Shown here: positions 4,807 to 42,540 of the stretch, piece by piece
How the letters are laid out: the number at the start of each line of letters is the position of its first letter
Numbering within the stretch: position 1 is the first letter of the stretch
IMG/VR virus record: IMGVR_UViG_3300021541_000005
Direction: 5' to 3' (one strand)
DNA length: 64,000 bases
From: a virus
Notes under the pieces: model-generated
Told to the model about the DNA's origin: nothing
What the model saw: the letters and a program-made list of their open reading frames with translations, nothing else
Database searches by the model: none
Position numbers and translations under genes: made by a program

Positions 4807-4808
4807 AA

Positions 4809-5840
4809 ATGAGTTGTAGAGTATTTGGTTTAGAACCAGAAGCTGCCTATGGTGAGGAAGTAGACAAAGATGATTTTCACTTACTTTTTGACCATGATGT
4901 AGACAGCATGGATTTTAAACTCAATGACGAACCGGTAACCAAAAGTTTCGGTTCAAGAATGAATCAAAAAGCAAGAGCTGGAGTAATCAAACCAACAGGT
5001 AGTATAGAAACTTCAGCAAACCTCCAAATATTAGGAGCTTACTTTTACGGATTCTTAGATAATTATAAGTTCACAGCAGGCCAAAATGGTAAAAACACCC
5101 ATGAGTTCTGGGGTGGTGAATCTAAATTATTAAAAAGTTTCAGAGGAAAAGCAGTTAACGACGATTTAATTTTCTACTTAATGGGTTTAATCGTCGATTC
5201 AATGAAACTCGAAGTATCTTCAGAAGACATGACTCTTGGAACTGACTTCATTTATAAAACAGAATTCTCTCAAATTTTAGCCGGTGAAAACGATTACGAA
5301 AGAGCCGAAGAACTAGAAGATGATTTATTCATAATGTTTTACGATGTCATGTTAAAACTCAATGGTAATGACCCTGCCGGCGTGCAGACAAGTTTTACCT
5401 TCGAAGGAAGTAACAATCATGACGTTGACAAAACAATAGGCTTTGGTTACAGACATCCACAGGGACAAGCAAAAGCAGGAAAAAGAGAAAACAGTATCAG
5501 CATTGTAACTACACTTACTCAAGAAACTGTAAGAGCAATATTAGATGCAAGATACGGTGATGTAGACCTTCTTGAACCTGCAAAATGTAAAATATTACAG
5601 GTCCCATTACAAATTGATGTTGAATTATGTGAATATCCTGGCCTTGGATTAACTATTTTATTCCCTAAATGTACTCTCTTAGCTGAATTCGACAGTAGTG
5701 GTATTGATGATGTGGAAGCAACATTAAATATGGCTACATTAGGTTCTGAAGAGGTTACATTAGCCGATGGAACTACTAAGAAAACAGATATGTATGTTAA
5801 ATTAGTCAATAAACAACCTAAGATAGCTCCCAGCATCTGA
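4809..5840 (+). CDS. Major tail (tube) protein
   Basis: 343 aa; N-terminal FG---E--YG motif; two-domain tube pattern; sits before chaperone and tape measure genes. Confidence 0.78.
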   Translation: MSCRVFGLEPEAAYGEEVDKDDFHLLFDHDVDSMDFKLNDEPVTKSFGSRMNQKARAGVIKPTGSIETSANLQILGAYFYGFLDNYKFTAGQNGKNTHEFWGGESKLLKSFRGKAVNDDLIFYLMGLIVDSMKLEVSSEDMTLGTDFIYKTEFSQILAGENDYERAEELEDDLFIMFYDVMLKLNGNDPAGVQTSFTFEGSNNHDVDKTIGFGYRHPQGQAKAGKRENSISIVTTLTQETVRAILDARYGDVDLLEPAKCKILQVPLQIDVELCEYPGLGLTILFPKCTLLAEFDSSGIDDVEATLNMATLGSEEVTLADGTTKKTDMYVKLVNKQPKIAPSI

Positions 5841-6090
5841 GGTGAATCCTGAAACTATTGATGATTTAGCAATAAGCGTAACTGATGGAACAAATCCTGT
5901 AAGTCAAGTTGAAGTTGCAATAGGAGAAATCACAGGCACTACTGGTAGTCAAGGTGGATGTACCTTGCATGATGTTCCTGTAGGCACGGTTACTGTAACA
6001 GCAACTAAAACCGGTTACGTAACTTACAGTCAGGAAGTAACAATTACTTCTAGCACTGAAACTTTAGATATTACTTTAGAGCCTCAATAA
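5830..6090 (+). CDS. Ig-like (carboxypeptidase-regulatory/PEGA-like) domain, probably a +1 frameshift extension of the tail tube protein
   Basis: VTDGT-PV--V-V-IG---GTT---G---L--VP-G--TVTATKTGY pattern; +1 frame opens only after TAG at 5824-5826; CCC-A at 5829-5832; no clear independent RBS. Confidence 0.65.
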   Translation, partial: PASEVNPETIDDLAISVTDGTNPVSQVEVAIGEITGTTGSQGGCTLHDVPVGTVTVTATKTGYVTYSQEVTITSSTETLDITLEPQ

Positions 6091-6157
6091 ACCTATTATA
6101 ATATTTTTTTTTTAGAATGAGGCTAAAAACTTTTATTATTTTTCAAAATTATAAAGA

Positions 6158-6601
6158 ATGGAGGCATTTAAAATGGCAATATTAAAAAAATCACAAATTT
6201 TACAAGGTATCAACGACCCTAAAAAAATACGCATTGAAGCATTAGATGGTGAACTCTGGTTAAGACCATTATCTAATTCAGAGTTAGATGAACTTGATAA
6301 AATCGAAGCTAAAGGAATGGAATCCTACGAAACCAATAGTAAATCTCGTGGTAGAATACAAGGGGAAACCGTTGCCAAAGGAAAAATAAACGTTCATTTA
6401 GCAACTGTTAATGGTGCAAAAGCACGTGATCGTAAAATAGAAATGAGTCTTGACAATCCTAAAAATGCGGATGATCCATGGACTGAAGAGGACATTGGAA
6501 AATTACCGCGTGATGCAGTAAATGAAATCGTTGATGCAATTAATGAATTATCTGGCCTTGAGGTTACAAAAGGAGATATAGATAAATTTCCTGAAGAGTG
6601 A
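6158..6601 (+). CDS. Tail assembly chaperone (start probably ATG 6173)
   Basis: Lies between tube and tape measure genes; LRPLSNSELDEL motif; GGAGG RBS at 6160. Confidence 0.72.
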   Translation: MEAFKMAILKKSQILQGINDPKKIRIEALDGELWLRPLSNSELDELDKIEAKGMESYETNSKSRGRIQGETVAKGKINVHLATVNGAKARDRKIEMSLDNPKNADDPWTEEDIGKLPRDAVNEIVDAINELSGLEVTKGDIDKFPEE

Positions 6602-6743
6602 TGAAGGGCAAGACATAATCTGGTTAGATTACTGCGGATACCATTTATGTGAACGTAGCAGTGATTTAACTTACATTCAATCTTATTTTATTAGTAAAGG
6701 GCGTGCTGAATTACATAAAAAAATGAATGAAGTAAAAAAATAA
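6588..6743 (+). CDS. Tail assembly chaperone frameshift extension (GT-like), 51 codons with no own start
   Basis: Open +1 frame FLKSDEGQDIIWLDYCGYHLCERSSDLTYIQSYFISKGRAELHKK fills the gap before the tape measure gene; opens only after TAG at 6579-6581. Confidence 0.7.
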   Translation, partial: FLKSDEGQDIIWLDYCGYHLCERSSDLTYIQSYFISKGRAELHKKMNEVKK

Positions 6744-6758
6744 AGGGCGGTTTTAATA

Positions 6759-9700
6759 ATGGTTTCTGAAAATATTGTTAAAATTATATTAAAAATGGAA
6801 GACCAAGCCACCCAAATGGCTCAAAAAGCAGATCAAGCTATTAGTAAATTAGGTAATACAGCACAAACCTCAAATCAAAAAGCATCACAATCTGCACAAC
6901 AGTTGACTCAAAAATATGAAAGTACTAATGATAGTATTAGGCGAGTGGGTCAGGCTGTTGAAAAAGTTGGTCAAAATGGTGCTAAATCATTTAATAATAT
7001 GGGTGAGGCTACTCAAAAAGCTGTTATTAACTTTAATAGGTTAGATGAACAGTCCCAAAATGTTATTCGCCATATGGGTAATTTAGATGATGAAAGTAGA
7101 CAAACATTCCTTGGAATGTATAGTTATGCTCAGGATGCTATATCTAAATTTGATGCTTTACAAAATGAAACTAGAACTTGGGGCACAACTTTTGATTATA
7201 CTAGAAGTAAAATGCAGCTAATGGGTACTAATGTTGACTCATTAAAAGGTAAAATACAAGTTGTAGGTTCCAGTATTACAACTCATTTAGGTAATAAATG
7301 GGATACTATCAAATCAAAAGTAACTGTTTTTGGAAATTATATCACAAGCCATTTGTCTAGTGCATTATCTACTGTTAGAAGTAAAATTCAAAGTTTAGGT
7401 GATGCTTTTACTGGTATTGGTGGGGTAATCTCAACAGTATTTGGTGGGATTGGTTTAAAAGCAATGACAGATATGACAATAGGCGCATCAATTAACAGAG
7501 ATAGGATTAAATCATTATCTTTTGCAATGTTGGGTTATGGAGAGTCATTTGAATCTTTTAGCAAAGGAATATGGAAACAAATGGACTCTATGACAAATGC
7601 TAGTTTAGTGTCTTTGGATCAATTATCTCAAGCAGCATCTGTTGTAAAAATGAGCACTAATGCATCAAAAGAACAAATGAAAGAATTATTGCCTGTATTA
7701 AATGATATAGGTCAAAGAGCCATATTGATGGGTAAATCTGGTGATGAGGCCATGGGACTTATGCAGGCAGCAGGTAAAGGTCTCAACGGCGAATTTGAAA
7801 TGCTCAGAGAAAACTTTGGTATCACAAAAGAAAAACTTGAAAATGCCGGATGGAATGGTAGTGCAGAAGATATTGATGGTTATACTCAAGCATTAAAAAA
7901 GTGTTTAGCAGAAAGTGGTGACGTCAATGGTATGATGGATACTACTTCTGGGAAAATTACACGATTACAGAAAATGTGGAATGTTTCAGCTAGAAGTTTA
8001 GGTGATCAATTTAAACCAGCTCTAGATCAAGCACTAAATTCTCTACTCAAATTTCTTGATGCAGATAATAATGGAGAAATAGATAAACAGGCTCAAGGAT
8101 GGGTTCAATGTGCTGTCGGTGCTATGACAGCAGCAAGTGCTTTTGCAACATTAGCTCCATCAATCGCTCCAGCGTTACAAGTAATGGATATGTTTTTCAG
8201 TAAAGGTAGGGCAGTATTAACATTTTTAGGTTTACTTGAAGCTGAGGAGGGTGCTTTAACAGCTTCTACTTTAGCGAATACTATAGCTGAGAAAGCAAAT
8301 GCTATTGCAAAAGCAGCAAAAGGCGTTACAACAGCTGAGTTAACTGCTGAAGAGGTGGCTCTTGGTGCTGCTGAAGCAGGTTTAACTGCTGAAGAAATTG
8401 CTGCTGCGGCTGCCCATGCAGGAAGTGCTGTTGCTATGACTGCTGAAGGTGCTGCTGCTGTAACTGCTGCTGGTGGAACAACTACTTTAACTGGTGCTTT
8501 ATGGGGAATGACTACTGCATTATTGTCTAACCCTATTACATGGATTGTTGTAGCATTAGTTGCTTTGGCTGTTGCTGTTTATGAAGTAGGTAAAGCATTT
8601 GGATGGTGGAAAGATATTCCAACATTACTTGCAGCGGTTTGGTCAGGAATACAAAGGATGTGGAATGCATTTATTAATCATCCTGATGTTAAAGCAGTGA
8701 TTGGAGTTTTAGTTACTGCTTGGAATAGTCTTGTTTCTGCTATAGGATGGGTAATAAGTAAAGTTGAAGAGTTCTTTGGTATTCATATTAATGGGGAATT
8801 TGATGTTGTTCATGCTATTATCGAAGGAATTGGCGTTGCATGGCAAGTAATAACTATGCCTATCCGTACTGTAATTAGCATTATACAATTTTTAATACCT
8901 GTGTTTCAATCTGTTGCTTCAGCAGTGCAGACTGCTCAAAGTAAATTTGGTGCTTTCGGAGGATTTTTAGCTACTATGGCCTCTCCAATAATCTTTGTAT
9001 GGGAATTATTAAGAAAAATTGTATGTATATTGCTCGGTTGTAGTCCAGGTATTGTTCCAGCATTACAAAGAACTTGGGAAGTATTTCAGGAAGTATTCAA
9101 TGCTATTGCAGGATTTATTGGTGGTATTATTTCACCTATTGTGGAATCTATTAGGCCTTTAATTGATATTTTTGTGGAAATAGTAACGTATCTTGTTGAA
9201 ATGTTTATGCCTGCATGGGATTTACTCAGTAATATATTATTGGTAATCTGGAATGCAGTATCTCAGCTTATTAATATTTTCCAGGCATTTCTTAGTGGTC
9301 AAATTACTTTACCTCAAATGTTGAATATGATCTGGAATTTGATTTTGACTGCATATATGACAATTTTAACAATGATTATTAATTTTGTCTTCCAATGGGC
9401 AGGTCAAATTGTAAGTGCAGCAATTAATGCTGCTTCAGGTTTTGTTAATGGTATTATTACTTATATTAGTGGTTTACCTGGCAGATTCTTTAGTTATTTG
9501 GCTCAAACTACTAGTAATATTATTAATGCTGGTGCTCAATGGGTTAATACTGCTAGGCAAAAAGCTAGTGAAATGGTTAACAGTGCTTCAACTACTGTAC
9601 AACAATTACCCGGTAAAATTTATACGGAGTTTACTAAGGTTCCTGATCGTATACGTGAAGCTATACCTCAGGCTATAGCTGCTGCATTAAACTTTGGTAA

Positions 9701-21624: not shown

Positions 21625-22185
21625 ATGCCGTGTGCTATAATAGGAAATATAAAAGGTGTCAAAGGAGACACTGGAGAAAAAGGAGAAAAAGGAGATAAAG
21701 GAGACAGAGGCGAACAAGGAATACAAGGACCAGCAGGCCAAAATGGAATTGACGGTACTACAGACACACCAACACAAGTACTCAGCAAATTAAAGAATGT
21801 TGATGGATCCAATAGTGGCTTAGATGCAGACTTACTGGATGGTCATGATTCATCTTATTTTGCGAAAGCAGATGACTTACCTAGCTTGATTGCTATAGAA
21901 GAACCATATATATTTAGTGCATTCAAAATTGCTAAATCTGGAAATACTGTTGTGTTAGTTGTTGAACCATGGGCTGTTAATAGCCCGGTGGTAAATAAAT
22001 ATGTTAGTACAAATGTGCACGTACCTCCTGGTTATGAACCATCTTTCCCTGTTTATATTGCTAATGTTTTGCCTAATGATGTTCGAATGCAGATTACTCG
22101 AAGTGGGGATATCCAATTTTGGAGATCTGAGGGTGCTGGAACAGAATTTTGTGGTACGGGTTCATGGTTAGTTCCTGGGGAGTAA
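21625..22185 (+). CDS. Short collagen-like tail fibre protein
   Basis: G-X-Y run GVKGDTGEKGEKGDKGDRGEQGIQGPAGQNGIDG, the SGLDADLLDG fibre motif and a beta-rich tip. Confidence 0.78.
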   Translation: MPCAIIGNIKGVKGDTGEKGEKGDKGDRGEQGIQGPAGQNGIDGTTDTPTQVLSKLKNVDGSNSGLDADLLDGHDSSYFAKADDLPSLIAIEEPYIFSAFKIAKSGNTVVLVVEPWAVNSPVVNKYVSTNVHVPPGYEPSFPVYIANVLPNDVRMQITRSGDIQFWRSEGAGTEFCGTGSWLVPGE

Positions 22186-22191
22186 AGAAAA

Positions 22192-22299
22192 ATGAAGAAA
22201 TCTGATCCTCATAAAGGTTGTTGTTATAGGCGAACTTGTAATAAAGACTTGAAAAAATGTTGCTATTTATATAAAAAGGTGAAAAAATGGGAATTTTAG
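22192..22299 (+). CDS. Small basic Cys-rich ORF (35 aa), not in the ORF track
   Basis: MKKSDPHKGCCYRRTCNKDLKKCCYLYKKVKKWEF fills the gap and overlaps the endolysin start; weak RBS. Confidence 0.35.
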   Translation: MKKSDPHKGCCYRRTCNKDLKKCCYLYKKVKKWEF

Positions 22300-23417
22300 A
22301 TTGGATAAAGAACATTTTAGGGAATAATAAAAAGAATGCTAGATTAATCACGAAAGATTTAATCAAAACGTATGGTGAAAAAGACCAGTTAGAAGTGGGC
22401 CTATATGAAGGAAACTCACCTTTACCTGGTAAAATGATTACTTTTAATGTGAATGGTATGGATTATTATCGTAAGACTGATGATGATGGTATTGCTAGGT
22501 TAAATATTAATTTGCCTCCTGGTGAATATACTCCTTTAATTAGTTTTAAGGATGATGATTATAATCTTGATACTGAATTTACAACCGTGATTGTACGTTC
22601 TAAAACACGTATGGAAGGCACTGATATTAATATGACTTATCGTGATGGTACAATGTATCAATGTGCTGTGTATGATGATTTTGGCCGTGTTCTTGGAGAT
22701 GTTGATTTAACAATCAATGGGGTTACTTATCATAGAACCGCTGATAATGAGGGTTTGTATAAGTTAAATATTAATTTGAATCCTGGAAATTATACTATTA
22801 CTGCTAAATATCTTGGAGATATGTTTCATTTGCCTTCAGAGATTAAAAATACTATCCATATTAATGAAGCCCCTAAAGTGGAGCCTAAGGTAGAGTCTAA
22901 AGTAGAGCAAAATTATACTCTTAATCCATATATTACTCAACAGGGATCAGGTAAGCTTGGTCAAGTATGTGGATATTCCTGCGGTCCGCATAGTTTGATG
23001 CAATGTATCTATAGGCTGACTGGTATTGAATTGTCTGAATCTACATTAATGAGTGTGTGTGGGACTACATCAGGAGGCACAGATCATCAGGGTTTGGCGA
23101 CAGGTTTAGCATGGTTTAACCGGCAATACGGGTACAACCTGAAAATGACTTGGAAAAACAAAAGTGAGTTGTCATGGGAAGAAATACAGCAAGCCATAAA
23201 TAATGGAGCATTATTCTTCCATTTGTTATATCGCAATCAATGGGGTCATTATGAGGTTGCACAAAACAGTAAAAGTCCTATGTCCATTTTGAACAGCCTT
23301 GGAAGTAGATGTGGCAATGGGTATTGTGGATATATTGAAAGTAGATCAAGAGCTACTCAACAATCCTACATAAATGGTATAAGTCAGAAAAGTGTTTGTA
23401 TAATTAGTAGAGGGTGA
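22287..23417 (+). CDS. Putative endolysin: two Ig-like adhesin domains plus a C39-like cysteine peptidase (PeiR-like pseudomurein endoisopeptidase candidate)
   Basis: Two ..RTxDxxG.A/Y.LNINL.PG.YT repeats; Q-x5-CGPHS nucleophile, WGHYEV His and ILNSL motifs; follows the tail genes. Confidence 0.8.
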   Translation: MGILDWIKNILGNNKKNARLITKDLIKTYGEKDQLEVGLYEGNSPLPGKMITFNVNGMDYYRKTDDDGIARLNINLPPGEYTPLISFKDDDYNLDTEFTTVIVRSKTRMEGTDINMTYRDGTMYQCAVYDDFGRVLGDVDLTINGVTYHRTADNEGLYKLNINLNPGNYTITAKYLGDMFHLPSEIKNTIHINEAPKVEPKVESKVEQNYTLNPYITQQGSGKLGQVCGYSCGPHSLMQCIYRLTGIELSESTLMSVCGTTSGGTDHQGLATGLAWFNRQYGYNLKMTWKNKSELSWEEIQQAINNGALFFHLLYRNQWGHYEVAQNSKSPMSILNSLGSRCGNGYCGYIESRSRATQQSYINGISQKSVCIISRG

Positions 23418-24064: not shown

Positions 24065-25270
24065 ATGAAAAATATGAGACCTACAAATGAAATCCTAAAT
24101 GAAATATTCAGAGAACGTAACTCATCAATTAACACACAAAAATCATATGCAAGAAGTGTCAATCAATTCGAGTTATACTTCCAACAACATTTAGGAGAAA
24201 TATTAATCATTGCAGAAACAGAAGAAGATCAAGGAATACCCTGGAGAAAATCGACACTAAGACAATATCTAATAGAATTCAGAAGCTACCTATATGATAA
24301 ATACAAATCCAAGACAGCTAAATTATATCTTACATTAATAATATCTATTTTTAGGCATTTTGAATTTGTTATACCAAAATTACCACGTTTTAGTGAGGAC
24401 ATTGAAGTCATACCAATATTACCTGAAGACATTCCAGACAGGGAGATGCTTCAGAAATGTCTTGAAATAGCACCTAAGATTGTTGAAACATTCGCATTAT
24501 TCACTTCCAGTTCAGGAATGAGCAGGAGAGATGCATTGAATTTGAAAGTGAAAGATTATTTGGAAGCTACTAAAGAATATCATCATAGCAATAATGTTCA
24601 GGAAGCTATTAAAGAAATGAATTGGTCTAATGTTGATATTGTTCCTTGTTTTAGGGATTTAACACGTCAAAAAACGGGTTTACCATATTATACATTTTGC
24701 AGTCCAGAAGCTGCTAAAAGTTTGAACAATTATTTACTTAGTAGAAGAGTTTTAATCTATGCTGGTGATGGTGAGGTAATTGGATCAAGAGATGTCACGC
24801 CTGAAGATGATCTCTTTGATGTGTCATATCAATGGATAGGTGATTTGTTTGATGAAGTAAATCAAAAGTTGGGGCTCGGTAAAGCTGGTAGATATAACAG
24901 GTTTACTATTCATATGATGCGTCGTTATCATGCTACTCAGTTGCATGCTGCGGGAATGAGTGAAGATAAGATAAATCTATTGCAAGGTAGAACTCCGAAA
25001 AGTGTGATTCATGAGTCATATATTCGTGTAAAAGCAGAGGATTTGAAAGAAGAGTATATTCAAGCATTGCCATATATAGTGGTTACTGAGATTGATAAGG
25101 TGCGTACAAAGTTAGATGTTGTTACTGAAAAGAAAGAAGTGTTGGAAAATGAGAATATTGTTTTGAAAAATGAGTTATCTGATATTAAGTCTAGGCAGGA
25201 TAATCTTGAGAAATTAATCCTGGAAAATATTAGTGAGGAGCGTTTGGGTAAACTTAACAAACTAATATAA
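24065..25270 (+). CDS. int: Tyrosine recombinase (integrase)
   Basis: N-terminal SAM-like domain; SSGMSRRDALNL box I, RQKT lysine, HMMRRYHAT (HxxR), LQGR and ESY catalytic Tyr; C-terminal coiled coil. Confidence 0.9.
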   Translation: MKNMRPTNEILNEIFRERNSSINTQKSYARSVNQFELYFQQHLGEILIIAETEEDQGIPWRKSTLRQYLIEFRSYLYDKYKSKTAKLYLTLIISIFRHFEFVIPKLPRFSEDIEVIPILPEDIPDREMLQKCLEIAPKIVETFALFTSSSGMSRRDALNLKVKDYLEATKEYHHSNNVQEAIKEMNWSNVDIVPCFRDLTRQKTGLPYYTFCSPEAAKSLNNYLLSRRVLIYAGDGEVIGSRDVTPEDDLFDVSYQWIGDLFDEVNQKLGLGKAGRYNRFTIHMMRRYHATQLHAAGMSEDKINLLQGRTPKSVIHESYIRVKAEDLKEEYIQALPYIVVTEIDKVRTKLDVVTEKKEVLENENIVLKNELSDIKSRQDNLEKLILENISEERLGKLNKLI

Positions 25271-27397: not shown

Positions 27398-27532
27398 ATG
27401 AGTTATCGTGACAGGTACGTTGAATATCATTCTTTAGAATGGGATATATTCCACAGTCCATGTGGTGAATGTGAACACCTGGGCAACTGTAAACATTACA
27501 CTAGTGAAGGATGCCCAAATCAAGAGGAGTGA
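27398..27532 (+). CDS. Small Cys/His-rich protein (44 aa)
   Basis: MSYRDRYVEYHSLEWDIFHSPCGECEHLGNCKHYTSEGCPNQEE, CxxC-x5-C-x7-C; fills the gap before ERF. Confidence 0.6.
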   Translation: MSYRDRYVEYHSLEWDIFHSPCGECEHLGNCKHYTSEGCPNQEE

Positions 27533-27539
27533 TGATTTT

Positions 27540-28163
27540 ATGAGTATATATGATAAAATCGCTGATGTTCAAATGGAATTATTGGATGAGGAATTCAAAA
27601 CAAAAAGAGGATATCATGGGGAATATATGGGTTTGGAAGAGTTAACCTGTAAAATACTTCCTAAATGTTATAAACATGGTTTATTCTATTATTTCACTGC
27701 TAATGAAACTCATTTAATATTGAAAATCATTGACCGTGAAACTAAAGAAGCATTATCTCCAGCACCTCATGTCCGTTTACCAGAACTAAGCCGAGACATG
27801 AAAGTTGAAGGTGGGAATATTACTTATATGAAAAGGTATTTGTTAATGGATACTTTTCAGGTTATTGCTGAATCATTTGATCCTGATGACACAAAAGATG
27901 GTTTACCACCACAAAAGAATAATGATGCTAGCTCAGCACGTAAGAAAAACACTAAAAAAGAACCATCTGAAACAGTGAATGTGGATATTCCACAGTTATA
28001 TAAGGATGCTTTAAAAGAATTGCGTACTGTTAAAGGATTAAATGATTCTGAAATTACAGTTTCTGCTATCAGAAAACATATTTTCAAGAATGGTACGTTT
28101 AATCAAACGGAAAGAGATGAAATTGCAAGATATGTTAAAACTACTTGGAGGCTTTCAAAATGA
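27540..28163 (+). CDS. erf: ERF-family single-strand annealing recombinase
   Basis: MSIYDKIADVQ start with GAGGAGTGA RBS; Y--LEEL---ILP---KHGL and GGNITYMKRYLL-D-FQV motifs of ERF. Confidence 0.8.
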   Translation: MSIYDKIADVQMELLDEEFKTKRGYHGEYMGLEELTCKILPKCYKHGLFYYFTANETHLILKIIDRETKEALSPAPHVRLPELSRDMKVEGGNITYMKRYLLMDTFQVIAESFDPDDTKDGLPPQKNNDASSARKKNTKKEPSETVNVDIPQLYKDALKELRTVKGLNDSEITVSAIRKHIFKNGTFNQTERDEIARYVKTTWRLSK

Positions 28164-31228: not shown

Positions 31229-31469
31229 AATGTTAGAATTGTATGGGCGCTGTGGAAAAGATGTTGAAATAATTAGTTTTGATATTAAGACTATGGTTGT
31301 TATTGTGAAAGATAAAATGAATGATATCACTTACAAAGGAGTAGTAGATAGTTGTTATGTGAATGCTGATCAGCTGTATCGAAAGTTCAATGGTGATGTT
31401 GGTGATGTAGAGTATTCATTAAAAATTTCTTTGAGGGAGTATGTGGTGATAAAAAATGACGGCGATTAA
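31218..31469 (+). CDS. Hypothetical protein
   Basis: Coupled ORF. Confidence 0.6.
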   Translation: MVIKMLELYGRCGKDVEIISFDIKTMVVIVKDKMNDITYKGVVDSCYVNADQLYRKFNGDVGDVEYSLKISLREYVVIKNDGD

Positions 31470-31788
31470 ATTTAAAAAAGAATTTTTTAAACCTATTAAA
31501 AATGGAGTTAAAACTCAAACTTTAAGAAGGCGTAGATTGGATGTAGTTCCTGGTGACTTTGCAGTATGTGTTTTTGAGGATTGTCCTGAAAAAATATTCG
31601 TCACTATTACTGATGTGGGTTACAAAATGTGGAAAACACTAAATGTTGAAGATGCAAAGCTTGAAGGTTTTGGATCTTTACATGATTTGAAAATGTGTTT
31701 ATTACAAATCTATCCTAATATTCAGCCTTGGGATAGGTTTTATTTTTACCGTTTTGAAGTTGATGGTTTTACTGAAACAATGGAGTAA
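31456..31788 (+). CDS. ASCH-domain protein
   Basis: IKFKKEFFKPIKNGVKTQTLRR..GD and AKLEGF-SL--L motifs (GxKxxTxR signature). Confidence 0.85.
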   Translation: MTAIKFKKEFFKPIKNGVKTQTLRRRRLDVVPGDFAVCVFEDCPEKIFVTITDVGYKMWKTLNVEDAKLEGFGSLHDLKMCLLQIYPNIQPWDRFYFYRFEVDGFTETME

Positions 31789-35198: not shown

Positions 35199-36668
35199 AT
35201 GGAACCCTTAACTATTGATGAATTCGCACAATTAGTAAGCAGAGGAGCTTGGAAACCATTCATACACTTATTACTAGTGGTTAAGCTATTACATTATGTA
35301 ATAGAAGGTCGCATATCACGTTTAATGGTATTCATGCCTCCAAGACATGGTAAATCTGAGCTAATAAGTTACTATTTTTTAACATGGTTCCTAGGGTGTT
35401 TTCCTGATAAACAGGTAATACTCACTACTCATAGCGCTAATTTCAGTCGTAAATGGGGTCGTAGAGTACGTAACCTTCTAGAATACATAGGAAAAGATGC
35501 ATTTGAAGTTCCTATAGTACTGGCTGAAGACAGTAAAGCTGCTCATACCTGGAACATTAAAGACCATAAAGGCGGTCTTGTCACAGCAGGTGTTGGTGGA
35601 TCTATTCTGGGTGAGGGTGCAAATGGTTTCATCATAGATGATCCAACTAAAGGTTTCAAAAAAGCAAGAAGTAAAACACATCAAAAAGAACTAAACGATT
35701 GGTGGTTTACAGAAGCTAAAACCCGTTTAAATGCAGATATTGAAGGTGGAAGTAAACCATGGGTAATAGGAATATGGCAAAGACTTAACATAGACGATTT
35801 AGCCGGTCAAATATTATACAAAAAAGAAGGAGACAAACGTGTACCAAATGAACCTCACATAACCTATCAAGAGGCTATGAGAATAATAGAGGAAGAAAAC
35901 GAGGATGTACCTTATGGAACATGGGTAATCTTAAACTTACCTGCTATAGCTGAAGAAAATGACCCGTTAGGAAGAGCTCCTGGAGAGCCATTATGGCCAG
36001 AACAAAAACCATTAGAAGAACTCCAACACATTAAAACTGAAATGGGTAGTTTCAGATTCAACGCAGTATATCAAGGAAACCCACGTGAACCTGAAGGTAA
36101 TGTATTTTTCCGTAAATGGTTTCGTAACAGTAAAATGTCACCTAAAGAAATGGATAAGCTCATTGTTAAATTACCTACATTACGATACTGGGATCTTGGA
36201 GCTTCAGGTGAGGATGGAGATCCAACAGCAGCCCTGTACACTGCATGGGATGGTGAATATATGTACATGAGAAAACTCTTACATAAAGGATTAACCCCAT
36301 TACAGGTTGAAAAATACTTCCTAGACACTACTCTACGTGATGGTAAAAGTACACGTGTTAAAATAGAGCAAGAACCTGGTGCATCACCTAAAGTTTTAAT
36401 CAATAACTTAGCACGTAGAAAAGAATTCAAAGGTTATAGTATAAGGCCGGATAGAGTAAGGGATTATGGTGATAAATTAACACGTAGTTTTGACTTGCAG
36501 GCATTAGCAGAGGCTGATAAAGTACGTATTTCAGAAGATATTTTTGACATGGTGGTTGATGAATTAGTTGAATTCACTGGTGAGGAAGGAGGCCAGGACA
36601 ATATCACAGATGTAGCAACTGGTTCTGCCCGCCATTGGAAGCGTAGACGAGCTAAAATACACGCATAA
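35199..36668 (+). CDS. terL: Terminase large subunit
   Basis: Walker A MPPRHGKS, Walker B FIIDD, YQG-P, nuclease WDLG..D and DNITDV. Confidence 0.95.
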   Translation: MEPLTIDEFAQLVSRGAWKPFIHLLLVVKLLHYVIEGRISRLMVFMPPRHGKSELISYYFLTWFLGCFPDKQVILTTHSANFSRKWGRRVRNLLEYIGKDAFEVPIVLAEDSKAAHTWNIKDHKGGLVTAGVGGSILGEGANGFIIDDPTKGFKKARSKTHQKELNDWWFTEAKTRLNADIEGGSKPWVIGIWQRLNIDDLAGQILYKKEGDKRVPNEPHITYQEAMRIIEEENEDVPYGTWVILNLPAIAEENDPLGRAPGEPLWPEQKPLEELQHIKTEMGSFRFNAVYQGNPREPEGNVFFRKWFRNSKMSPKEMDKLIVKLPTLRYWDLGASGEDGDPTAALYTAWDGEYMYMRKLLHKGLTPLQVEKYFLDTTLRDGKSTRVKIEQEPGASPKVLINNLARRKEFKGYSIRPDRVRDYGDKLTRSFDLQALAEADKVRISEDIFDMVVDELVEFTGEEGGQDNITDVATGSARHWKRRRAKIHA

Positions 36669-36695: not shown

Positions 36696-38303
36696 ATGGT
36701 TAAATCAGAATCATGGATAGTAACAGTAGACGAAACTACTGGTGACGTTAAAGATGTTATAAGCGAAATTGAAATGGGCAAATATGCTATAAAAGCAGAT
36801 GTTGACCCTACTACGGGGAGTAAACAAACACCTAGTGATCATTATGCTCATGGAATAACAGTTATTGACCCGAAATATAATCCTTATAATTTAATTGAAT
36901 TATTAGATTTGTATAGTTATCATGCTGATTGTGTTGATGCTGTTGCAACAGACGCCAGTGGTGTAGATTATACATTGAAACCTATTGAAGGAAAAGATGA
37001 AGTTGAAAGTGAGAAAATAAGATTCACAGAAATATTAGATAATAGTAAACCTTCAATTAATATTCACATTCACCGTATGATTTATGACCGTAGAAGCATA
37101 GGCTATGGTGCAATGGAAGTAATAAGAGAATCCACTAGTAAATCACCTATAACACGTTTAAAACACATACCATCACACACATTACGCCGTCATACAGACA
37201 TGAAAAGAGTATTATACACAGATGACACAGGAAAAAAAGTCTGGTATGTGCTATATGGTAAAAATTACGATGATGATGGAAATCCAGTTGATGTTCATAT
37301 GAAGACAGGTGAATTCCATCCATATAATAGTTTAAGCATGGAAGAAAAAGCTAATGAATTATTATGGACTATGGAGTATGCTCCAGGAACAAATTATTAT
37401 GGTAGACCACCAATTATAGCTACATTACCATCCATACAATCTGATTTAGCTGCGGTACGTTATAATACTACTTTTTTCCAGAATTATGGTATGCCAGCAT
37501 TCGCAGTCACAGTAACTGGAGATTTCCAAGATTACGAGGAAGAGAAATATATAAAAGACGATGATGGACGTGAAATTCTCAATCCCGATTATGATGAAAA
37601 ACAAACTTTAAGATACCAAATATCACAGCAAGTAAAAGAAGTAATACGCAATCCACATTCAGCTATTTGTATTACAGTACCATCTGAAGGAGTAGACGGA
37701 GATGTAGAAATTAAAATCACTCAATTAAGTGTTGACGTTAAAGAAGGCTCTTTCAGAATGATGAAAAAAGACATACGTGATGAAGTAATACACGCTCACC
37801 AGGTTGACCCTTCACGTTTAGGTATTTTTGACAGTGGCAATTTAAATGGTACTAATTCTGAAGTCACTAAAGCATCCTATAAGTATGGTACTATTGCACC
37901 AATTAAAACTGAAGTTGAATCTATGATAAATCAGATAGCAGCTGAATTAAAAGTGACTAGTTGGAAATTTGTTATTAATGATGTGGATCCAATTGACCAT
38001 AGCCCACGTAAAGATTTAGCTGATTTTTTATTTGCACGTGGTGCAATGACTATTATGGATCTGATTAATAATTTTGGTGATGAATTCGGTTTGGCTGTTG
38101 ATGACCCAAATGACCCTTATTTGAACAGTAGATTCATTAATAATATCCCGTTGGAGCAAGTTTTCAATCAATCAGAACAGAATAGTTACTTGGAAGAAAA
38201 GAGTATTTTGAAGGCTTTGGATGGTAATCTCTGGCAAGACTCTGAAGAGGATGATGATTTTTTAGGAGTTAACAATGACACAGGAATTGGAGAAACAGAT
38301 TAA
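36696..38303 (+). CDS. Portal protein
   Basis: Follows terL; YYGRPP, FFQNYGMP and AHQVDP-RLG motifs of HK97/PBSX-type portals. Confidence 0.92.
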   Translation: MVKSESWIVTVDETTGDVKDVISEIEMGKYAIKADVDPTTGSKQTPSDHYAHGITVIDPKYNPYNLIELLDLYSYHADCVDAVATDASGVDYTLKPIEGKDEVESEKIRFTEILDNSKPSINIHIHRMIYDRRSIGYGAMEVIRESTSKSPITRLKHIPSHTLRRHTDMKRVLYTDDTGKKVWYVLYGKNYDDDGNPVDVHMKTGEFHPYNSLSMEEKANELLWTMEYAPGTNYYGRPPIIATLPSIQSDLAAVRYNTTFFQNYGMPAFAVTVTGDFQDYEEEKYIKDDDGREILNPDYDEKQTLRYQISQQVKEVIRNPHSAICITVPSEGVDGDVEIKITQLSVDVKEGSFRMMKKDIRDEVIHAHQVDPSRLGIFDSGNLNGTNSEVTKASYKYGTIAPIKTEVESMINQIAAELKVTSWKFVINDVDPIDHSPRKDLADFLFARGAMTIMDLINNFGDEFGLAVDDPNDPYLNSRFINNIPLEQVFNQSEQNSYLEEKSILKALDGNLWQDSEEDDDFLGVNNDTGIGETD

Positions 38304-41300
38304 ACATATTAATAATAGTTTATTTGCTGCTAAAATGGAAAATATCATACAATACATGTATGAAGAGGAATTAAAAACAAGTGTAGCTGGAATATTCCAT
38401 AGTATCCGTACAGAAATACTCAAGAATCTTGAAGAGTATTACGGTGATGTGCTGTTTAATGCACACATGGATTTAATATTAGCACCCATACATGAGCATC
38501 ACAAACAATACTATGACACCATAATGAAATACAAGCTCAAAGAGCATAGAAAAGGACGTGTTCAAGGAAAAAGATTAATTGCACGTGCTAAACAGTACGC
38601 CAAACAATACAGTAAAGCTTATTATGGTGGTGCTGTTAAAGAGGACACGATTAATGTTCCTATGAATAGCATAATCAAGAAAGATGAATTATTTGCTACT
38701 TCAGACTACAGTGCTGAACAAATGCGTGACAAGACATTTGTTGCAAGTGAAAACACCTTAGCACGTGTAGATAAAGATATTAACGGCATAATCACAGATG
38801 GCTACCGTGATGGATGGGGTATAAACGATGTAGCTAACAAGATAGAAACCCGTTTCAACCAGCTAGAAACATGGGAAGCACGACGCATAGCAAGAACCGA
38901 AATACACGGGTCACATATGCAAGGAGTAATGAACTCATATGAAGACATGGGCGTAGAATACTTACAATGGGGAGCAGCACATGACAACCGTACACGTGAC
39001 ACACATGCAGCATTAGACGGTGAAATCATACCCTGGAACGGTGTTTTCAGTAATGGTTTAAGGTATCCTGGAGATACAAATGGTCCGATTAGTGAGTGGA
39101 TTAATTGTCGTTGTGGTGTTTTACCGTGGTTTTGTCCTCCTGGTATGATGGTGCCTGTGGGTATGTCTAATTTTAGGGAGTCTGATTTATTACCTTTAGG
39201 AACATTAGGAACCGGTGGAGACTTATTAACACAATTCCAAGATGAAGTCTCAGCAATACCAAAACAATCATCATCTTTTGACTTAGACATTATTAATCCT
39301 AAATTAATTGATTCTAAATTCTCAATACCTAATGAAGATTTATCAGAATTTGGAATAACTGAAAAAGGAATGGAAACAATTCAAAGATATACTAAACGTA
39401 GAATTGGCTCTGATATAGAATATGGTGTAGTATTCAATGAGAAAAACGGTAAATTCTTATCTAAAGAATTTAAAGGAGCTAGTAATGATATAGTATTAAC
39501 CAAACCAAATGGAAAATATAGTACAATACACTACCATACTGATGAGGGTTTTAGACCTACATCTTCAGGAGATTTCTTTGAATTCTTAAACTCAAAAAAT
39601 GAACGTGTAGGAATAAATATCTCAAGAAAAGAATCATGGTTCATAAAAAATGAAGGCAAATTAACTTCTAAAGAAATTAATAAAATAACTGTAGATATTG
39701 ATAGATTAGAACAAAAACAATTAAAAAAGTTAACCGATGAATATCGTAAGTCATCACTTAAAATTAATAAGATTAAAGACCCTGTTAAAAGACAATCCGC
39801 TCAAAAAGAATTTGAAAAATATGTTGCAAATGAATTCTTAGACAAACATAATAAAGAATTAGGTGATGCAATACTTGAATATACATCAAATATCAAAGGA
39901 TTAAAAGTAAAAAGAGTAATGCATACAGAAATAAATCCAAAATCTATTAAAACAATAAGTAAAAAAGAATTAAAAGTAGATAAAAGAAGTTTTGAAGAGT
40001 TAACTGGTGTTAAAAGACATTCAACACCAATTAATAATAAAGACTATAATAAATATGCTTTGACATCGGTTGAAGAAAAAACATTAGCAAAATTAGAAGC
40101 TGAAAAAGATTCATTAGGTATGATAGAAAAACGTAGTTATAAGGAATTGGCAGATAGAAAAGAATTCAACTCATTATGGAATAAAATATTACGTGAAGGA
40201 GGAAATCCTAATGATGTAATGGAGCTATCTGGGGGAGAGGGTGTAAGATATGAAAAATTAATGAAAAAATTCAAAGATTGGACTCCAAAAGGCGACATTG
40301 AAATAAAACCAATACAAATTAACAAAAAAACTATTTTTAAAGATAAAGATGCATTCAAATTAACATCTGAAGAAAAACAAGCATACAAAAAACTTAAAAA
40401 GAACAAAGGTAGCTTGTCAACGGATGAAAAAGAATACTACTCTCAATTATCAACTAAATTACAACTCCATCAAAAACATCAAGAATTGATTGGAAACGGT
40501 TTGAGTGAAACTAAATCTAAAACATATGTTGAATTGTATTCTCGATATCGAAAACAATGGAATTTACCTGAATTATCCCTTGATTTAAAATTCACTACAC
40601 AACAAAAATCATTTATTTCATATGATTATTATAAGAATGCTACAGAATTTAAACTTACTAAAAAAGAAGCAGATAAATTATATGAATTAGAGAAAAAACA
40701 ATTATACGGACGAAAATTAACTTCAAATGAATTAAAAACAATGGATGAATTACATAATCAACAAAGATTCATTTACTTGAATAATATTAATCAAACAGAA
40801 AAAGGTTTAGATTATGATGCTACTATTGAGTTTAAAAAATTATATAAATCATTAAAAACAAAACTTAAATTAGATAAAAGTGTTTTAGAGCAACCTTTAA
40901 CAGGGTATGAATCTAAAATTTCTTTAGATAAAAATCCTAAGAATTTAAAAACATTTAAAGGCACTAATGAGGAAGGTTTACTCCCGAATGGTGAATCCTT
41001 AGAAAAGTATTTCACTAAAGATGCACGTGAAATGACCATACGTGAACAAAAAGTAGCGGATAGATGGTTGGGTTCGGATTATAAAGCATTCACTAACTTT
41101 GAAGTGGATTGTGGGCGTGATGTTAAGAAATTCGAGAAATGGATTTATGACATGGCCAAAGCATACAAAGAAGACAATTCATTAAAATATTATCAGTATT
41201 ATTATGATGAAATAACCAGGAGAACAGGTAGAATATCAAAATCTGAAGCTAAAAAATTAGCAGAATCTATTGCTCATGATGTGCCTGTTTTAGATGATAT

Positions 41301-41700
41301 ATTAAATAATCAATTGAAAGAAGGTATGACATTATGGCGTGTACAAGAGAATCATAATTTAAGTTCCACCACGATTGGTGAGGTTATGGATTTCCCTAAT
41401 TTCAGATCTACAGCTATTTCCAAAGAAGGGGCATTATGGTTCAGTAAAACTAACGCTAAAGAGATGAATTATTTAATTGAAATTGAGGCTCCAGCAGGTA
41501 CTAAAGGAGCATATTTAGCTCCAATAAAACAAGGAGAAATAATAAATCCAACATCTCCTTTCGTAGGAGAGAAATATGCGAATGAAATGGAATTTTTATT
41601 AAAAAAATCTAAAGTAGAGTTGGTTAAATTCGAGGATAAAACTGTTAAAGGTGCTAATGGTGAAAAATTAAAACATATACTGTTAAGAATAGTGGGATGA
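38275..41700 (+). CDS. MuF (SPP1 gp7-like) head protein fused to a JAB-like domain, helical repeats and a C-terminal VIP2-type ADP-ribosyltransferase
   Basis: RRIARTE, D-RTR-TH---DG and INCRC MuF motifs; E...HYH-x8-S-xx-D; ART triad LWR, FRSTA and EME. Confidence 0.88.
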   Translation: MTQELEKQIKHINNSLFAAKMENIIQYMYEEELKTSVAGIFHSIRTEILKNLEEYYGDVLFNAHMDLILAPIHEHHKQYYDTIMKYKLKEHRKGRVQGKRLIARAKQYAKQYSKAYYGGAVKEDTINVPMNSIIKKDELFATSDYSAEQMRDKTFVASENTLARVDKDINGIITDGYRDGWGINDVANKIETRFNQLETWEARRIARTEIHGSHMQGVMNSYEDMGVEYLQWGAAHDNRTRDTHAALDGEIIPWNGVFSNGLRYPGDTNGPISEWINCRCGVLPWFCPPGMMVPVGMSNFRESDLLPLGTLGTGGDLLTQFQDEVSAIPKQSSSFDLDIINPKLIDSKFSIPNEDLSEFGITEKGMETIQRYTKRRIGSDIEYGVVFNEKNGKFLSKEFKGASNDIVLTKPNGKYSTIHYHTDEGFRPTSSGDFFEFLNSKNERVGINISRKESWFIKNEGKLTSKEINKITVDIDRLEQKQLKKLTDEYRKSSLKINKIKDPVKRQSAQKEFEKYVANEFLDKHNKELGDAILEYTSNIKGLKVKRVMHTEINPKSIKTISKKELKVDKRSFEELTGVKRHSTPINNKDYNKYALTSVEEKTLAKLEAEKDSLGMIEKRSYKELADRKEFNSLWNKILREGGNPNDVMELSGGEGVRYEKLMKKFKDWTPKGDIEIKPIQINKKTIFKDKDAFKLTSEEKQAYKKLKKNKGSLSTDEKEYYSQLSTKLQLHQKHQELIGNGLSETKSKTYVELYSRYRKQWNLPELSLDLKFTTQQKSFISYDYYKNATEFKLTKKEADKLYELEKKQLYGRKLTSNELKTMDELHNQQRFIYLNNINQTEKGLDYDATIEFKKLYKSLKTKLKLDKSVLEQPLTGYESKISLDKNPKNLKTFKGTNEEGLLPNGESLEKYFTKDAREMTIREQKVADRWLGSDYKAFTNFEVDCGRDVKKFEKWIYDMAKAYKEDNSLKYYQYYYDEITRRTGRISKSEAKKLAESIAHDVPVLDDILNNQLKEGMTLWRVQENHNLSSTTIGEVMDFPNFRSTAISKEGALWFSKTNAKEMNYLIEIEAPAGTKGAYLAPIKQGEIINPTSPFVGEKYANEMEFLLKKSKVELVKFEDKTVKGANGEKLKHILLRIVG

Positions 41701-41704
41701 TAAA

Positions 41705-42025
41705 ATGAAAAGAGCAGAAATTATTAATATAAACTATTTGATTGATCATGCTGAAGATATTATAAATAACACTACTGTTCTATTTCCTCAATGGTTGTGG
41801 CGTAGATCCAAATGTTCTGATGATGGTGAGCAGTTGCAGGATATTTGGGATCGTATGTATCAAAAACATCAAAGAGAAAGTGGCAATTGGTATATTTTCG
41901 GTAGAGGTGATCCTTGGATTAACCCTGGTGAAACATGGGACGAAGCTCAAGACCGCATAGTCAGAGAATATTGTGAAGCCACTGGCCACTGGGATTTATT
42001 CATATGGAAAGAGGTGAAAGAATGA
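41705..42025 (+). CDS. Small Trp-rich protein, candidate immunity protein
   Basis: Starts 4 nt after the MuF-ART stop; function inferred from position only. Confidence 0.55.
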   Translation: MKRAEIININYLIDHAEDIINNTTVLFPQWLWRRSKCSDDGEQLQDIWDRMYQKHQRESGNWYIFGRGDPWINPGETWDEAQDRIVREYCEATGHWDLFIWKEVKE

Positions 42026-42540
42026 AAGTACTTCAATTTGATTCACATTTCATCAATGATCATATGGATGAATTAGTTCATTTGGAAGACTATGTACCAG
42101 AAATATTATTTAGTTATTATGATAAGCAAAATGAACGTGATAGATTCTTAAAATCTAAAAATTTATTAGAAACTATACATAAGATAGATCAATTATTGGA
42201 TGAAAAATGTAAACTTTCAAAAAATCCAATTATGATAAGGAATAGTATTATCATTGAATGGTTAGATTGTCATCCTGAATTTGAAGGAATAATAGCTGGG
42301 GAATTCTGGGAAAAGTATCAAATGATGAAAAATAATAATGATTTTATTGAGTTTATTGATCTTTTATCTCAATTCAAATTTGCTTCTGAAGAACAAATTA
42401 TAGCAAAATATGAATATCGTAATGATGTTATTCATAAAGATGATTCTAATAGAATGTTTCCTGATTTTAAAAAAATTGATGCTATTTTTAATAAATATGG
42501 GGCTTCTTTATTAGCATGTTATTTATCAGAGTTTGTTTAA
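42022..42540 (+). CDS. Hypothetical protein, second candidate immunity or orphan gene
   Basis: GAGGTGA RBS before ATG 42022; ATGA overlap. Confidence 0.55.
   Translation: MKVLQFDSHFINDHMDELVHLEDYVPEILFSYYDKQNERDRFLKSKNLLETIHKIDQLLDEKCKLSKNPIMIRNSIIIEWLDCHPEFEGIIAGEFWEKYQMMKNNNDFIEFIDLLSQFKFASEEQIIAKYEYRNDVIHKDDSNRMFPDFKKIDAIFNKYGASLLACYLSEFV

Follow-up and report, generated by a model that had tools for sequence, protein, structure and literature searches.

Can a virus of a methanogenic archaeon carry a toxin-like enzyme fused to one of its own head proteins and encode, right beside it, the protein that keeps this enzyme silent? The locus that raises this question lies in a 64,000-nt stretch of viral DNA (hereafter the window), obtained by reading a circular record of 42,415 bp beyond its full length, positions 1-21585 and 42416-64000 agreeing with 0 mismatches. 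The virus is a tailed virus of rumen Methanobrevibacter, and the methanogen host named in a preliminary description of the sequence is borne out by relatives in MAGs of Methanobrevibacter from animal guts, on contigs as long as 171 kb; relatives also occur inside contigs that reach 220 kb. The ORF at 24065-25270 resembles an integrase but, at 24.8 against a Pfam cut-off of 27, is sub-threshold.

The gene order places the fusion within the head module. Following the gene for the terminase large subunit (35199-36668; PHROG 38, E 1.8e-62), the portal gene (36696-38303, plus strand; PHROG 12, E 2e-21) stands directly 5' of the MuF-ART gene (38275-41700, plus strand), the start of which shares 29 nt with the portal ORF, and protease and capsid genes lie on the 3' side. 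The encoded protein, P0001, has 1141 aa and combines a MuF head domain, a JAB-like module, a Lys-rich helical linker and a C-terminal ART. Its first 300 residues (38275-39174, plus strand) form the conserved N-terminal carrier, a MuF (SPP1 gp7 / Mu F) head-morphogenesis domain that matches Pfam Phage_Mu_F (PF04233) over aa 168-282 (E 2.9e-13) as well as PHROG head-morphogenesis and minor-head families, and that is 36% identical to its counterpart in Methanobacterium virus Drs3; the MuF N-terminus proposed earlier for a 1141-aa protein behind the portal is thus confirmed. The internal module (39262-39690, plus strand; aa about 330-470) is JAB/JAMM-like by its motif E...HxHx8SxxD, with HYH at 39529-39537, and its family assignment is tentative, as a weak Pfam match to DUF4329 (E 9e-5) stays below the cut-off. 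Only part of the MuF-ART family has such a module, and other MuF proteins, for instance P0067, have a homologue of it as their C-terminal module; the HxHx8SxxD motif is kept in the aligned P0013 and P0039. The Lys-rich, mostly helical linker (aa about 560-879; 39952-40911, plus strand) is kept among family members with the same ART, with 29-63% identity to related loci by tblastn.

The last part of P0001 (aa 880-1141 as modelled, core from about aa 905; 40912-41697, plus strand) is, by profile and predicted fold, a VIP2/C3-clade ADP-ribosyltransferase of putative activity. Scanned alone, the domain gives a PF03496 (ADPrib_exo_Tox) match that spans profile positions 18-181 of 196 and, at 35 bits (E 1.2e-8), exceeds the cut-off of 23.4; this match appears only for the isolated domain and is unlisted when the whole 1141-aa protein is scanned. 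The catalytic codons computed for R1022 (41338-41340, in LWR), S1045 (41407-41409, in FRSTA), E1104 (41584-41586) and E1106 (41590-41592, in E1104-M-E1106) fall where the preliminary description had read an R-S-E triad. Because all four residues are invariant in a first alignment, whose 14 homologues are as little as 33% identical overall, the matches to the R-S-ExE motif are not due to chance; in a 40-sequence alignment, R1022 and E1106 (R143, E227) are invariant, and S1045 and E1104 (S166, E225) reach at least 90%. The modelled domain, which had been expected near aa 900-1141, has the ART fold of the PF03496 R-S-E clade with these residues in it, its STA aligns with the STS of CDTa, and the nearest structures in a fold search are all protein-modifying R-S-E enzymes. 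Compared with its PF03496 relatives VIP2, iota Ia, CDTa, C3 and Certhrax, the P0001 ART is only 14-22% identical, has an additional long helical insertion (aa about 950-1010) that is absent from C3 and VIP2, and is joined to a capsid protein, with no binary toxin, B-component or secretion signal. Arginine-specific transferases, among them iota, VIP2 and Bxa, characteristically have an aromatic residue in the loop before an ExE motif. In P0001, the aromatic Y1101 sits in this loop, and the ExE type makes arginine specificity a candidate property. T4 Alt is likewise an R-S-E clade ART, which is packaged in the head, injected with the DNA and modifies host proteins on arginine. The likeness to P0001 rests on the common Pfam clade, and T4 Alt, unlike P0001, has no MuF fusion and no adjacent inhibitor gene.

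Does this domain behave as an exchangeable toxin module? The computed comparison of 146 MuF homologues finds this ART type in 66, while the others carry different PF03496 ART types or unrelated ends. Exchange is most evident in P0045, P0046 and P0047, whose N-termini are 93-94% identical to that of P0001 and whose C-termini differ: carriers this similar end in a diverged ART, in an ART of type 2 or in a region that is no ART, and both other ART types pass PF03496. Some relatives have two ARTs (P0033, P0034, P0037), and in L002/L017 two C-terminal modules are followed by both matching small ORFs. The variable ends anticipated for MuF homologues in related viruses are therefore found, and the polymorphic-toxin reading of Methanobrevibacter MuF proteins holds at the level of sequence. 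The C-terminal domain of this ART type is conserved, with 39-86% identity across 43 clusters, so that much of the family resembles a stable virion enzyme and less a fast-changing toxin.

Two small coupled ORFs had been described behind the ART, and both are present on the plus strand, at 41705-42025 and 42004-42540. The first, which begins 4 nt after the ART stop, encodes P0002 (106 aa), a candidate ART immunity protein whose family is not represented in Pfam and matches no solved PDB fold. In the window as well as in L001, L007, L008, L009, L010 and L018, this ART type has a homologue of P0002 directly on its 3' side, and small ORFs unrelated to it follow the type 2 ART (L004) and the non-ART end (L006). 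The linkage extends to 301 genomes of the host family, where all 7 of 7 full-length ARTs (at least 71% identity) have a P0002 homologue within 6 nt. Measured as identity to the window proteins, ART and P0002 diverge together (Spearman 0.96, n=7) and MuF N-terminus and P0002 do not (0.07). The co-variation as a whole draws on about 20 loci, which come from related viruses and are non-independent. Finally, orphan modules, consisting of the last 27-41 aa of the ART and an intact P0002 homologue, occur in L005, L014, L015 and L016.

In structure prediction, the modelled ART-P0002 complex reaches an ipSAE of 0.86 versus 0.00 for the best control; 58 of 80 solved complexes attained the mark, as did 2 of 110 mismatched pairs, calibration counts that hold only roughly, since custom alignments were fed to the complex prediction. 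Contacts agree between runs to at least 87%, partner pLDDT is at least 89, and as P0002 lacks a solved-fold match, the score is unlikely to stem from a memorised structure. The predicted contacts on the ART (S1045, 1056-1062, 1085-1096 and Y1101) comprise the STS serine and the loops flanking ExE, and P0002 is thereby predicted to cover the active site. Sequence linkage and model together make P0002 a strong candidate for the cognate ART inhibitor.

The position of the third cassette gene, P0003, is less clear-cut. Its ORF (42022-42540, plus strand) encodes 172 aa from ATG 42022, or 178 aa from ATG 42004; the former is probably the true start, because a GAGGTGA ribosome-binding site lies upstream, the ATG overlaps the P0002 stop as ATGA, and homologues begin at an equivalent MK[VL]L. 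Although the ORF spans the circular join (42415/42416), it is no artefact of it, as the frame runs through unbroken and homologues from L001 and L018 cover its full length. Only 22 relatives were found. P0003 adjoins P0002-like genes in L001, L011, L012, L013, L014, L015 and L018, always on their 3' side except in L014, where it lies 5' of the ART remnant. An Apea-like HEPN identity, suggested by an Atlas feature score of 0.94, was rejected, given that RNDVIH is unconserved among homologues and 0 of 13 family members have a Pfam match.

The preliminary description counted both small ORFs as candidate immunity genes; this stands for P0002, which is strongly tied to the ART, and only partly for P0003, an optional add-on, judging by its distribution, whose links to the ART are weaker and indirect. 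Could both nonetheless be non-enzymatic immunity proteins, with P0003 binding either this ART or, as polyimmunity, the non-cognate ARTs of competing viruses? The gene is translationally coupled to P0002 through the ATGA, its family stands next to P0002-like genes in 8 loci, orphan modules included, and its N-terminal half (residues 9-114) shares homology with a family of ART-associated proteins about 90 aa long (hhalign 98.6%, E 6e-16); one protein of that family is encoded right beside free-standing PF03496 ART genes arranged in tandem. Bxa, moreover, has two immunity proteins and a third small ORF (PMC11699363). Against these links stand the small number of relatives, the lack of any Pfam or PDB match, a poor Atlas model (pLDDT 0.43) and a patchy distribution: the majority of cassettes with this ART type (L007-L010) yielded no P0003, nor did L003 or L005. 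P0003 may be a second ART-binding protein, and a double immunity appears possible, if on balance doubtful.

The closest known system is Bxa, a MuF-ART of the Bacteroides stercoris prophage PhiBxa. Neighbouring genes supply immunity proteins that neutralise it, and one of these, Bsi, has been modelled in the ART active site (PMC11699363). As in the Bxa/Bsi/BAH system, an N-terminal MuF domain and a C-terminal ART form one protein encoded in the head module of a gut provirus (a putative one here), small ORFs follow directly 3', one non-enzymatic protein is modelled in the ART active site, and homologous MuF N-termini bear other toxin domains. Unlike Bxa, the present system has an archaeal host, and P0002 is without detectable sequence or fold likeness to anything solved; no ARH-type hydrolase was found, P0002, P0003 and 20 scanned non-structural ORFs of the virus giving no ARH or macrodomain Pfam match. 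P0001 is also longer, with its internal JAB-like module and a 300-aa helical linker. Under a rival, Bxa-like reading, the fusion is not chiefly an effector for injection: lysis of the host by the provirus would set it free to act beyond the producing cell, on neighbouring microbes or the gut epithelium, with P0002 shielding only the producer until then. Bxa itself acts on epithelial cells and needs its immunity proteins (PMC11699363), the place of the relatives on long contigs and in gut Methanobrevibacter MAGs would make them proviruses of gut archaea, and the sub-threshold integrase-like gene points the same way. However, the sequence suggests no uptake or translocation domain for other cells, a MuF protein beside the portal fits capsid loading, and the orphan inhibitors in host genomes are best explained by an enzyme that reaches the cytoplasm of other Methanobrevibacter cells, which leaves an outside role unlikely.

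A wider comparison favours an archaeal variant of systems described for bacteria. Among the MuF toxins of temperate phages surveyed by Jamet et al. 2017 (PMC5576092), which include the E. faecalis EFV toxin, 14% are ARTs, and the present locus has the same conserved MuF carrier, variable C-terminal toxins, small downstream ORF and, putatively, provirus context. Of the features by which a MuF toxin is recognised, those found here are a MuF protein beside the portal, swapped C-termini and a type-specific small ORF. Whereas that survey covers bacterial phages and genomes only, the word 'archaea' being absent from its text, swapping, cognate small ORFs and orphan remnants are found here in Methanobrevibacter viruses. 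Like the polyvalent proteins of phages and conjugative elements (PMC5512222) and MuF-Alt/VIP2 fusions (PMC9503650), P0001 may unite several effector domains in one putatively virion-associated polypeptide, here MuF, a firmly identified ART and a tentative module of JAB-like or peptidase-like type, with injection alongside the DNA as a proposal; the relatives with two ARTs, and L002/L017 with an ART and another module, do fit this pattern. Polyvalent proteins have not been described with cognate immunity genes; in the present viruses, by contrast, every C-terminal module is accompanied by a small ORF of its own. The preliminary description knew of no characterised archaeal example, and the searched literature agrees; yet polyvalent proteins do occur in archaeal elements (Iyer et al. 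2017, PMC5512222), albeit with few examples and nearly all large ones bacterial according to the same authors (Iyer 2017 PMC5512222; Iyer 2022 PMC9503650), and ARTs are annotated in haloarchaeal viruses (PMC8651126).

Two further readings concern what the proteins do. P0002 might be indispensable to the ART without inhibiting it, serving for example as a chaperone in folding or packaging, as an activating cofactor or as a subunit that selects the target, and this need would explain their co-inheritance; strict adjacency, co-divergence and a confident interface all speak for partnership and leave the direction of the effect undefined. Yet intact homologues persist beside dead ART remnants and in loci devoid of MuF (L014, L015, L016, L005), a pattern typical of protective immunity genes and hard to fit to a clientless chaperone or cofactor, and the predicted contacts over the STS serine and ExE loops have the geometry of occlusion; a partner role is accordingly distinctly unlikely. 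That the ART-fold domain is instead an NAD(P)+ glycohydrolase, or acts on a nucleic acid or small molecule, is very improbable: polymorphic toxin systems do include ART-fold NADases such as Tne5 (PMC13285283), the acceptor cannot be read from fold and motif alone, and the helical insertion is unlike C3 and VIP2, but the nearest structures all modify proteins, and ExE with Y1101 has the established pattern of arginine-specific transferases.

The data are compatible with a model, which we regard as probable, in which the locus is an archaeal member of the MuF polymorphic-toxin and polyvalent head-protein systems, with P0002 silencing the ART and delivery by the virion as a proposal. Specifically, the MuF N-terminus would be produced beside the portal as a minor head protein, carrying with it the JAB-like module, the helical linker and the ART. 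In the producing cell, be it an induced lysogen or a cell late in infection, P0002 would bind across the NAD/substrate cleft and silence the enzyme. A few copies of the fusion are then probably packed into the capsid and probably enter the next Methanobrevibacter cell together with the DNA, as analogy with SPP1 gp7, T4 Alt and bacterial MuF toxins suggests, and the delivered enzyme might, by the same analogy, modify host proteins. To our knowledge, delivery of a MuF protein into archaeal cells has never been demonstrated. The ART and the P0002 gene would in turn constitute one recombination cassette that moves between virus lineages independently of the MuF N-terminus and leaves orphan inhibitor copies behind. 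As such, the locus would represent an archaeal counterpart of a phage toxin-immunity system that has so far been studied only in bacteria.

P0001, the 1141-residue protein encoded at 38275-41700 on the + strand, carries a Pfam MuF domain at residues 168-282 (E 2.9e-13), and PHROG head-morphogenesis families match it over residues 45-293. When its last 241 residues are scanned alone, they score 35 bits for PF03496 (ADPrib_exo_Tox, the Pfam family of VIP2, C3 and iota ADP-ribosyltransferases, ARTs), where the curated cut-off is 23.4; the match needs the domain on its own and is not listed when the whole protein is scanned against Pfam. R1022, S1045, E1104 and E1106 do not vary across 14 aligned homologues, which reach down to 33% identity, and a 40-sequence alignment again leaves R1022 and E1106 invariant, with S1045 and E1104 kept in at least 90%. 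The preliminary description had read the gene as a MuF N-terminus joined to an ART end with an R-S-E triad at these codons, and the Pfam, PHROG and PF03496 matches bear this out together with the conserved residues. The C-terminal domain is very likely a functional R-S-ExE ART, and an ExE enzyme would be expected to modify arginine. A PDB sequence search with the ART returned marginal matches only (Lmo0066, E 0.09), and a search of the phage collection matched P0001 in its MuF N-terminus only, best in Methanobacterium virus Drs3 (36%).

The same protein holds further modules. Residues ~330-470 (39262-39690) contain an E...HxHx8SxxD motif that is JAB/JAMM-like, one residue over the JAMM spacing, and that is conserved in the homologues P0013 and P0039. 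Homologues of this module stand at the C-terminus of other MuF proteins (e.g. P0067). The internal module matches only DUF4329 in Pfam, below threshold, and is patchily distributed, with some carriers of the window's ART type having it and others lacking it, as expected for a polyvalent protein. A Lys-rich helical linker (residues ~560-880) travels with the ART. In the MuF homologues P0033, P0034 and P0037, the window-type ART is followed by a tandem second ART, a weak, far C-terminal match of 8-11 bits to the same ART HMM, with the motifs YRYG, TSTS and HEHEF in P0034.

The 64-kb window reads round a circular record of 42,415 bp, and bases 1-21585 are identical to 42416-64000; because the latter segment repeats the start exactly, findings reported there duplicate those at 1-21585. 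Every long ORF is on the + strand. The MuF-ART gene follows those for the terminase large subunit (35199-36668, +) and the portal (36696-38303, +) and is itself followed by two small ORFs, past which, across the circular join, lie a protease/scaffold-like gene (810-1859, +) and then a capsid-type structural gene (1902-2969, +). At 24065-25270, an integrase-like ORF matches archaeal phage integrase with 24.8 bits, short of the cut-off (27); the virus also encodes an ERF-family single-strand annealing protein (27462-28163, E 8e-9) and an ASCH-domain protein (31456-31788, E 3.5e-10). Past the tail genes, a collagen-like repeat protein (21625-22185) and a protein with Ig-like domains (Big_3_5; 22287-23417) probably belong to fibres or adhesins. 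The virus has Methanobrevibacter as its host. NCBI labels relatives of P0001 'phage minor head protein [Methanobrevibacter sp.]', and Methanobrevibacter metagenome-assembled genomes from goat, roe deer and rumen samples hold nine related loci. The nearest genome compared, G001, contains 33% of the window's 31-mers and a gene for a 78% identical homologue of P0001; it and its family served as the comparison genomes.

Among the homologues of P0001, it is the end of the protein that changes. The MuF N-terminus retrieves 213 proteins at E <=0.001; a family HMM places the window-type ART in 66 of the 146 MuF homologues examined, and clustering of the last 200 residues sorts the other end modules of the remainder into about a dozen groups. 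Specifically, the first 300 residues of P0045, P0046 and P0047 are 93-94% identical to those of P0001, and their C-termini are an ART only 39% identical, a non-ART module and a second ART type, respectively, both ARTs passing PF03496 when scanned alone. This comparison of MuF C-termini, which the preliminary description had proposed, reveals near-identical N-termini with different ends, and polymorphic toxins are defined by just such a carrier that stays constant while its C-termini are exchanged. Within the window's own type, the enzyme is stable: a search with the ART region recovers 43 clusters, nearly all MuF-positive, whose ARTs are 39-86% identical. Two names for alternative ends, 'GNAT-like' (motif YRRCGFEP) and 'zinc-peptidase-like' (HExxH; P0030 and P0041), found no Pfam confirmation, and both are kept as non-ART modules.

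The first small ORF, encoding the 106-residue P0002 (41705-42025, +), follows the ART rather than the carrier. We compared the genes directly downstream in the genomic context of ten homologues, with L018 added later. A P0002 homologue, 37-77% identical, abuts the window-type ART in the window and in L001, L007, L008, L009, L010 and L018; in L003, a diverged ART is followed by a correspondingly diverged P0002 relative (~30% identical), and the small ORFs after a type 2 ART (L004) and a non-ART end (L006) are unrelated to P0002. The MuF protein of L002 (L002:7992-12998) and L017 (G272:C86), 1370 residues long, has a diverged ART and beyond it one more module at the C-terminus, and its gene is followed by three small ORFs (82, 105 and 105 residues). 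The first matches the partner of the non-ART module (L006 type) and the second the partner of the diverged ART (L003 type), which makes one small gene per effector. Across seven related loci, identity of P0002 to the window protein tracks that of the ART (Spearman 0.96) and not that of the MuF N-terminus (Spearman 0.07), figures that describe a pattern rather than an independent test since the loci are related. Among 301 host-family genomes, P0002 is matched in 13 and the ART in 18, and a P0002 homologue lies within 6 nt after all seven full-length ARTs that are at least 71% identical. By these sequence comparisons, P0002 belongs with the ART, not with MuF. We consider it quite likely, as a prediction, that it is the cognate binding partner of the ART, and it is a rather likely candidate for an inhibitor of the enzyme. 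In the predicted complex, loop 59-74 and residues 24-38 of P0002 would lie over S1045, residues 1056-1062 and 1085-1096, and Y1101 of the ART. A separate small-protein family supplies the second gene after MuF in L004 (8147-8407), L006 (8200-8463) and L008 (9161-9637, where it is duplicated inside one ORF); it is indifferent to the C-terminal type, following ART type 2, a non-ART end and the window-type ART, and is probably not an immunity gene.

A partner that follows its ART could also be a helper of that enzyme, and here the orphan modules are informative. In L005, L014, L015 and L016, an ART remnant comprising the last 27-41 residues, which begins near residues 1100-1107 beside the conserved ExE motif, is directly followed by an intact P0002 homologue. 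In L005, the module is preceded by a MuF gene whose product ends differently and by that protein's own 143-residue ORF, and no MuF match was found in the retrieved stretches of L014 (G095), L015 (G115) and L016 (G297). L014 (G095:C17:31000-39500) has the look of an island of orphan immunity genes within a Methanobrevibacter genome: positions 4790-7073, without a MuF gene, hold three copies of an 87-91-residue family (L006_8200 type), a P0003 homologue, a 40-residue ART remnant and a P0002 homologue. Toxin 3' ends that are displaced while their immunity genes stay are the classic mark left by cassette replacement at CDI, Rhs and other polymorphic toxin loci, as Zhang et al. reportedly described in 2012. 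The orphan modules argue that P0002 is retained because it protects, not because it assists its own ART.

The second small ORF, encoding the 178-residue P0003 (42004-42540, +), is less tightly bound to the cassette. Its likely start is the ATG at 42022, preceded by GAGGTGA and overlapping the P0002 stop as ATGA, and an exhaustive HMMER search turned up no more than 22 relatives. Homologues adjoin P0002-like genes in L001, L011, L012, L013, L015 and L018, and in the L014 island one lies upstream of the ART remnant; none was found in L003, L005 and L007-L010, loci with the window's ART type or a close relative. Given this patchy presence, P0003 is linked to the cassette but dispensable. Of the two immunity genes suggested earlier, P0002 co-varies with the ART as expected, but P0003 does not hold to it. 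Three relationships fell away: an Apea-like HEPN assignment of P0003 (Atlas feature search, 0.94), as its Rx4H motif (RNDVIH) is not conserved and the 13 members have no Pfam match; paralogy of P0002 and P0003, whose N-termini are alike by eye (hhalign probability 0.7%); and kinship of P0002 with the ~90-residue family A5 (hhalign 0.5%). Residues 9-114 of P0003 are homologous to a ~90-residue protein family (hhalign 98.6%, E 6e-16), one member of which, P0218, runs into the start of a PF03496 ART gene that stands alone. Its contig holds a tandem array of three such ART genes interleaved with small ORFs (89, 81, 49 and 83 residues), the 89-residue one being homologous to the N-terminal half of P0003. 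This homology to a family of ART neighbours makes P0003 a tentative candidate for a second protein that binds ARTs, whether cognate or non-cognate. P0003 is no ADP-ribosylhydrolase. Downstream of the P0003 homologue in L011, outside any head module, positions 5659-6605 hold an ORF with weak likeness to ParE toxins and a truncated gene for a PF03496 ART beside a 1016-residue Big-domain protein.

To our knowledge, work on MuF-borne toxins and their immunity genes has been confined to bacteria (Apk2, Bxa, EFV). There, MuF-ART fusions with immunity genes are established for EFV and Bxa (PMC5576092, PMC11699363); in archaea, polyvalent proteins of archaeal elements have been noted (PMC5512222) and two haloarchaeal viruses have annotated ARTs (PMC8651126). 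The MSTV1 paper (PMC11375127) mentions neither MuF nor ADP-ribosylation, and our literature search found no paper that describes a cassette of MuF toxin and immunity gene for a virus of archaea, in keeping with the earlier statement that no archaeal example has been characterised. Unlike Bxa, whose immunity has an enzymatic arm, the Methanobrevibacter virus system lacks one, as no ADP-ribosylhydrolase or macrodomain gene was found among the 22 ORFs scanned, namely those of P0002 and P0003 and 20 non-structural ones. The comparative case for the cassette is unusually complete, and it brings a putative new inhibitor family, that of P0002. By analogy with MuF/gp7 and T4 Alt (PMC5576092, PMC5512222), it is plausible, at about even odds in our view, that virions would carry the fusion and deliver it along with their DNA.

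The findings bring the logic of bacterial MuF toxin-immunity systems to viruses of Methanobrevibacter, with unusually clear comparative evidence. These archaea dominate methane production in rumen and gut, and we know of almost no virus-host mechanisms in them. A ~260-residue ART domain and a 106-residue protein without known fold form a concrete enzyme-inhibitor candidate pair and offer a route to the archaeal proteins that a virus would modify at the start of infection. More speculatively, and on balance doubtfully, Methanobrevibacter viruses may run a complete toxin-immunity economy of their own, in which interchangeable cassettes of several ART types and other modules, borne by the capsid MuF protein, are injected into rumen and gut methanogens and the new-fold P0002 family, together with the family of the P0003 N-terminal domain, decides virus by virus whether a lysogen survives. 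If so, orphan inhibitor islands in host chromosomes would be acquired protection, and virion-delivered ADP-ribosylation would help to determine strain-level competition and superinfection among the gut's main methane producers. If incoming virions are countered by the orphan inhibitor genes of host genomes, archaea would have in them an antiviral or exclusion factor of a new type.
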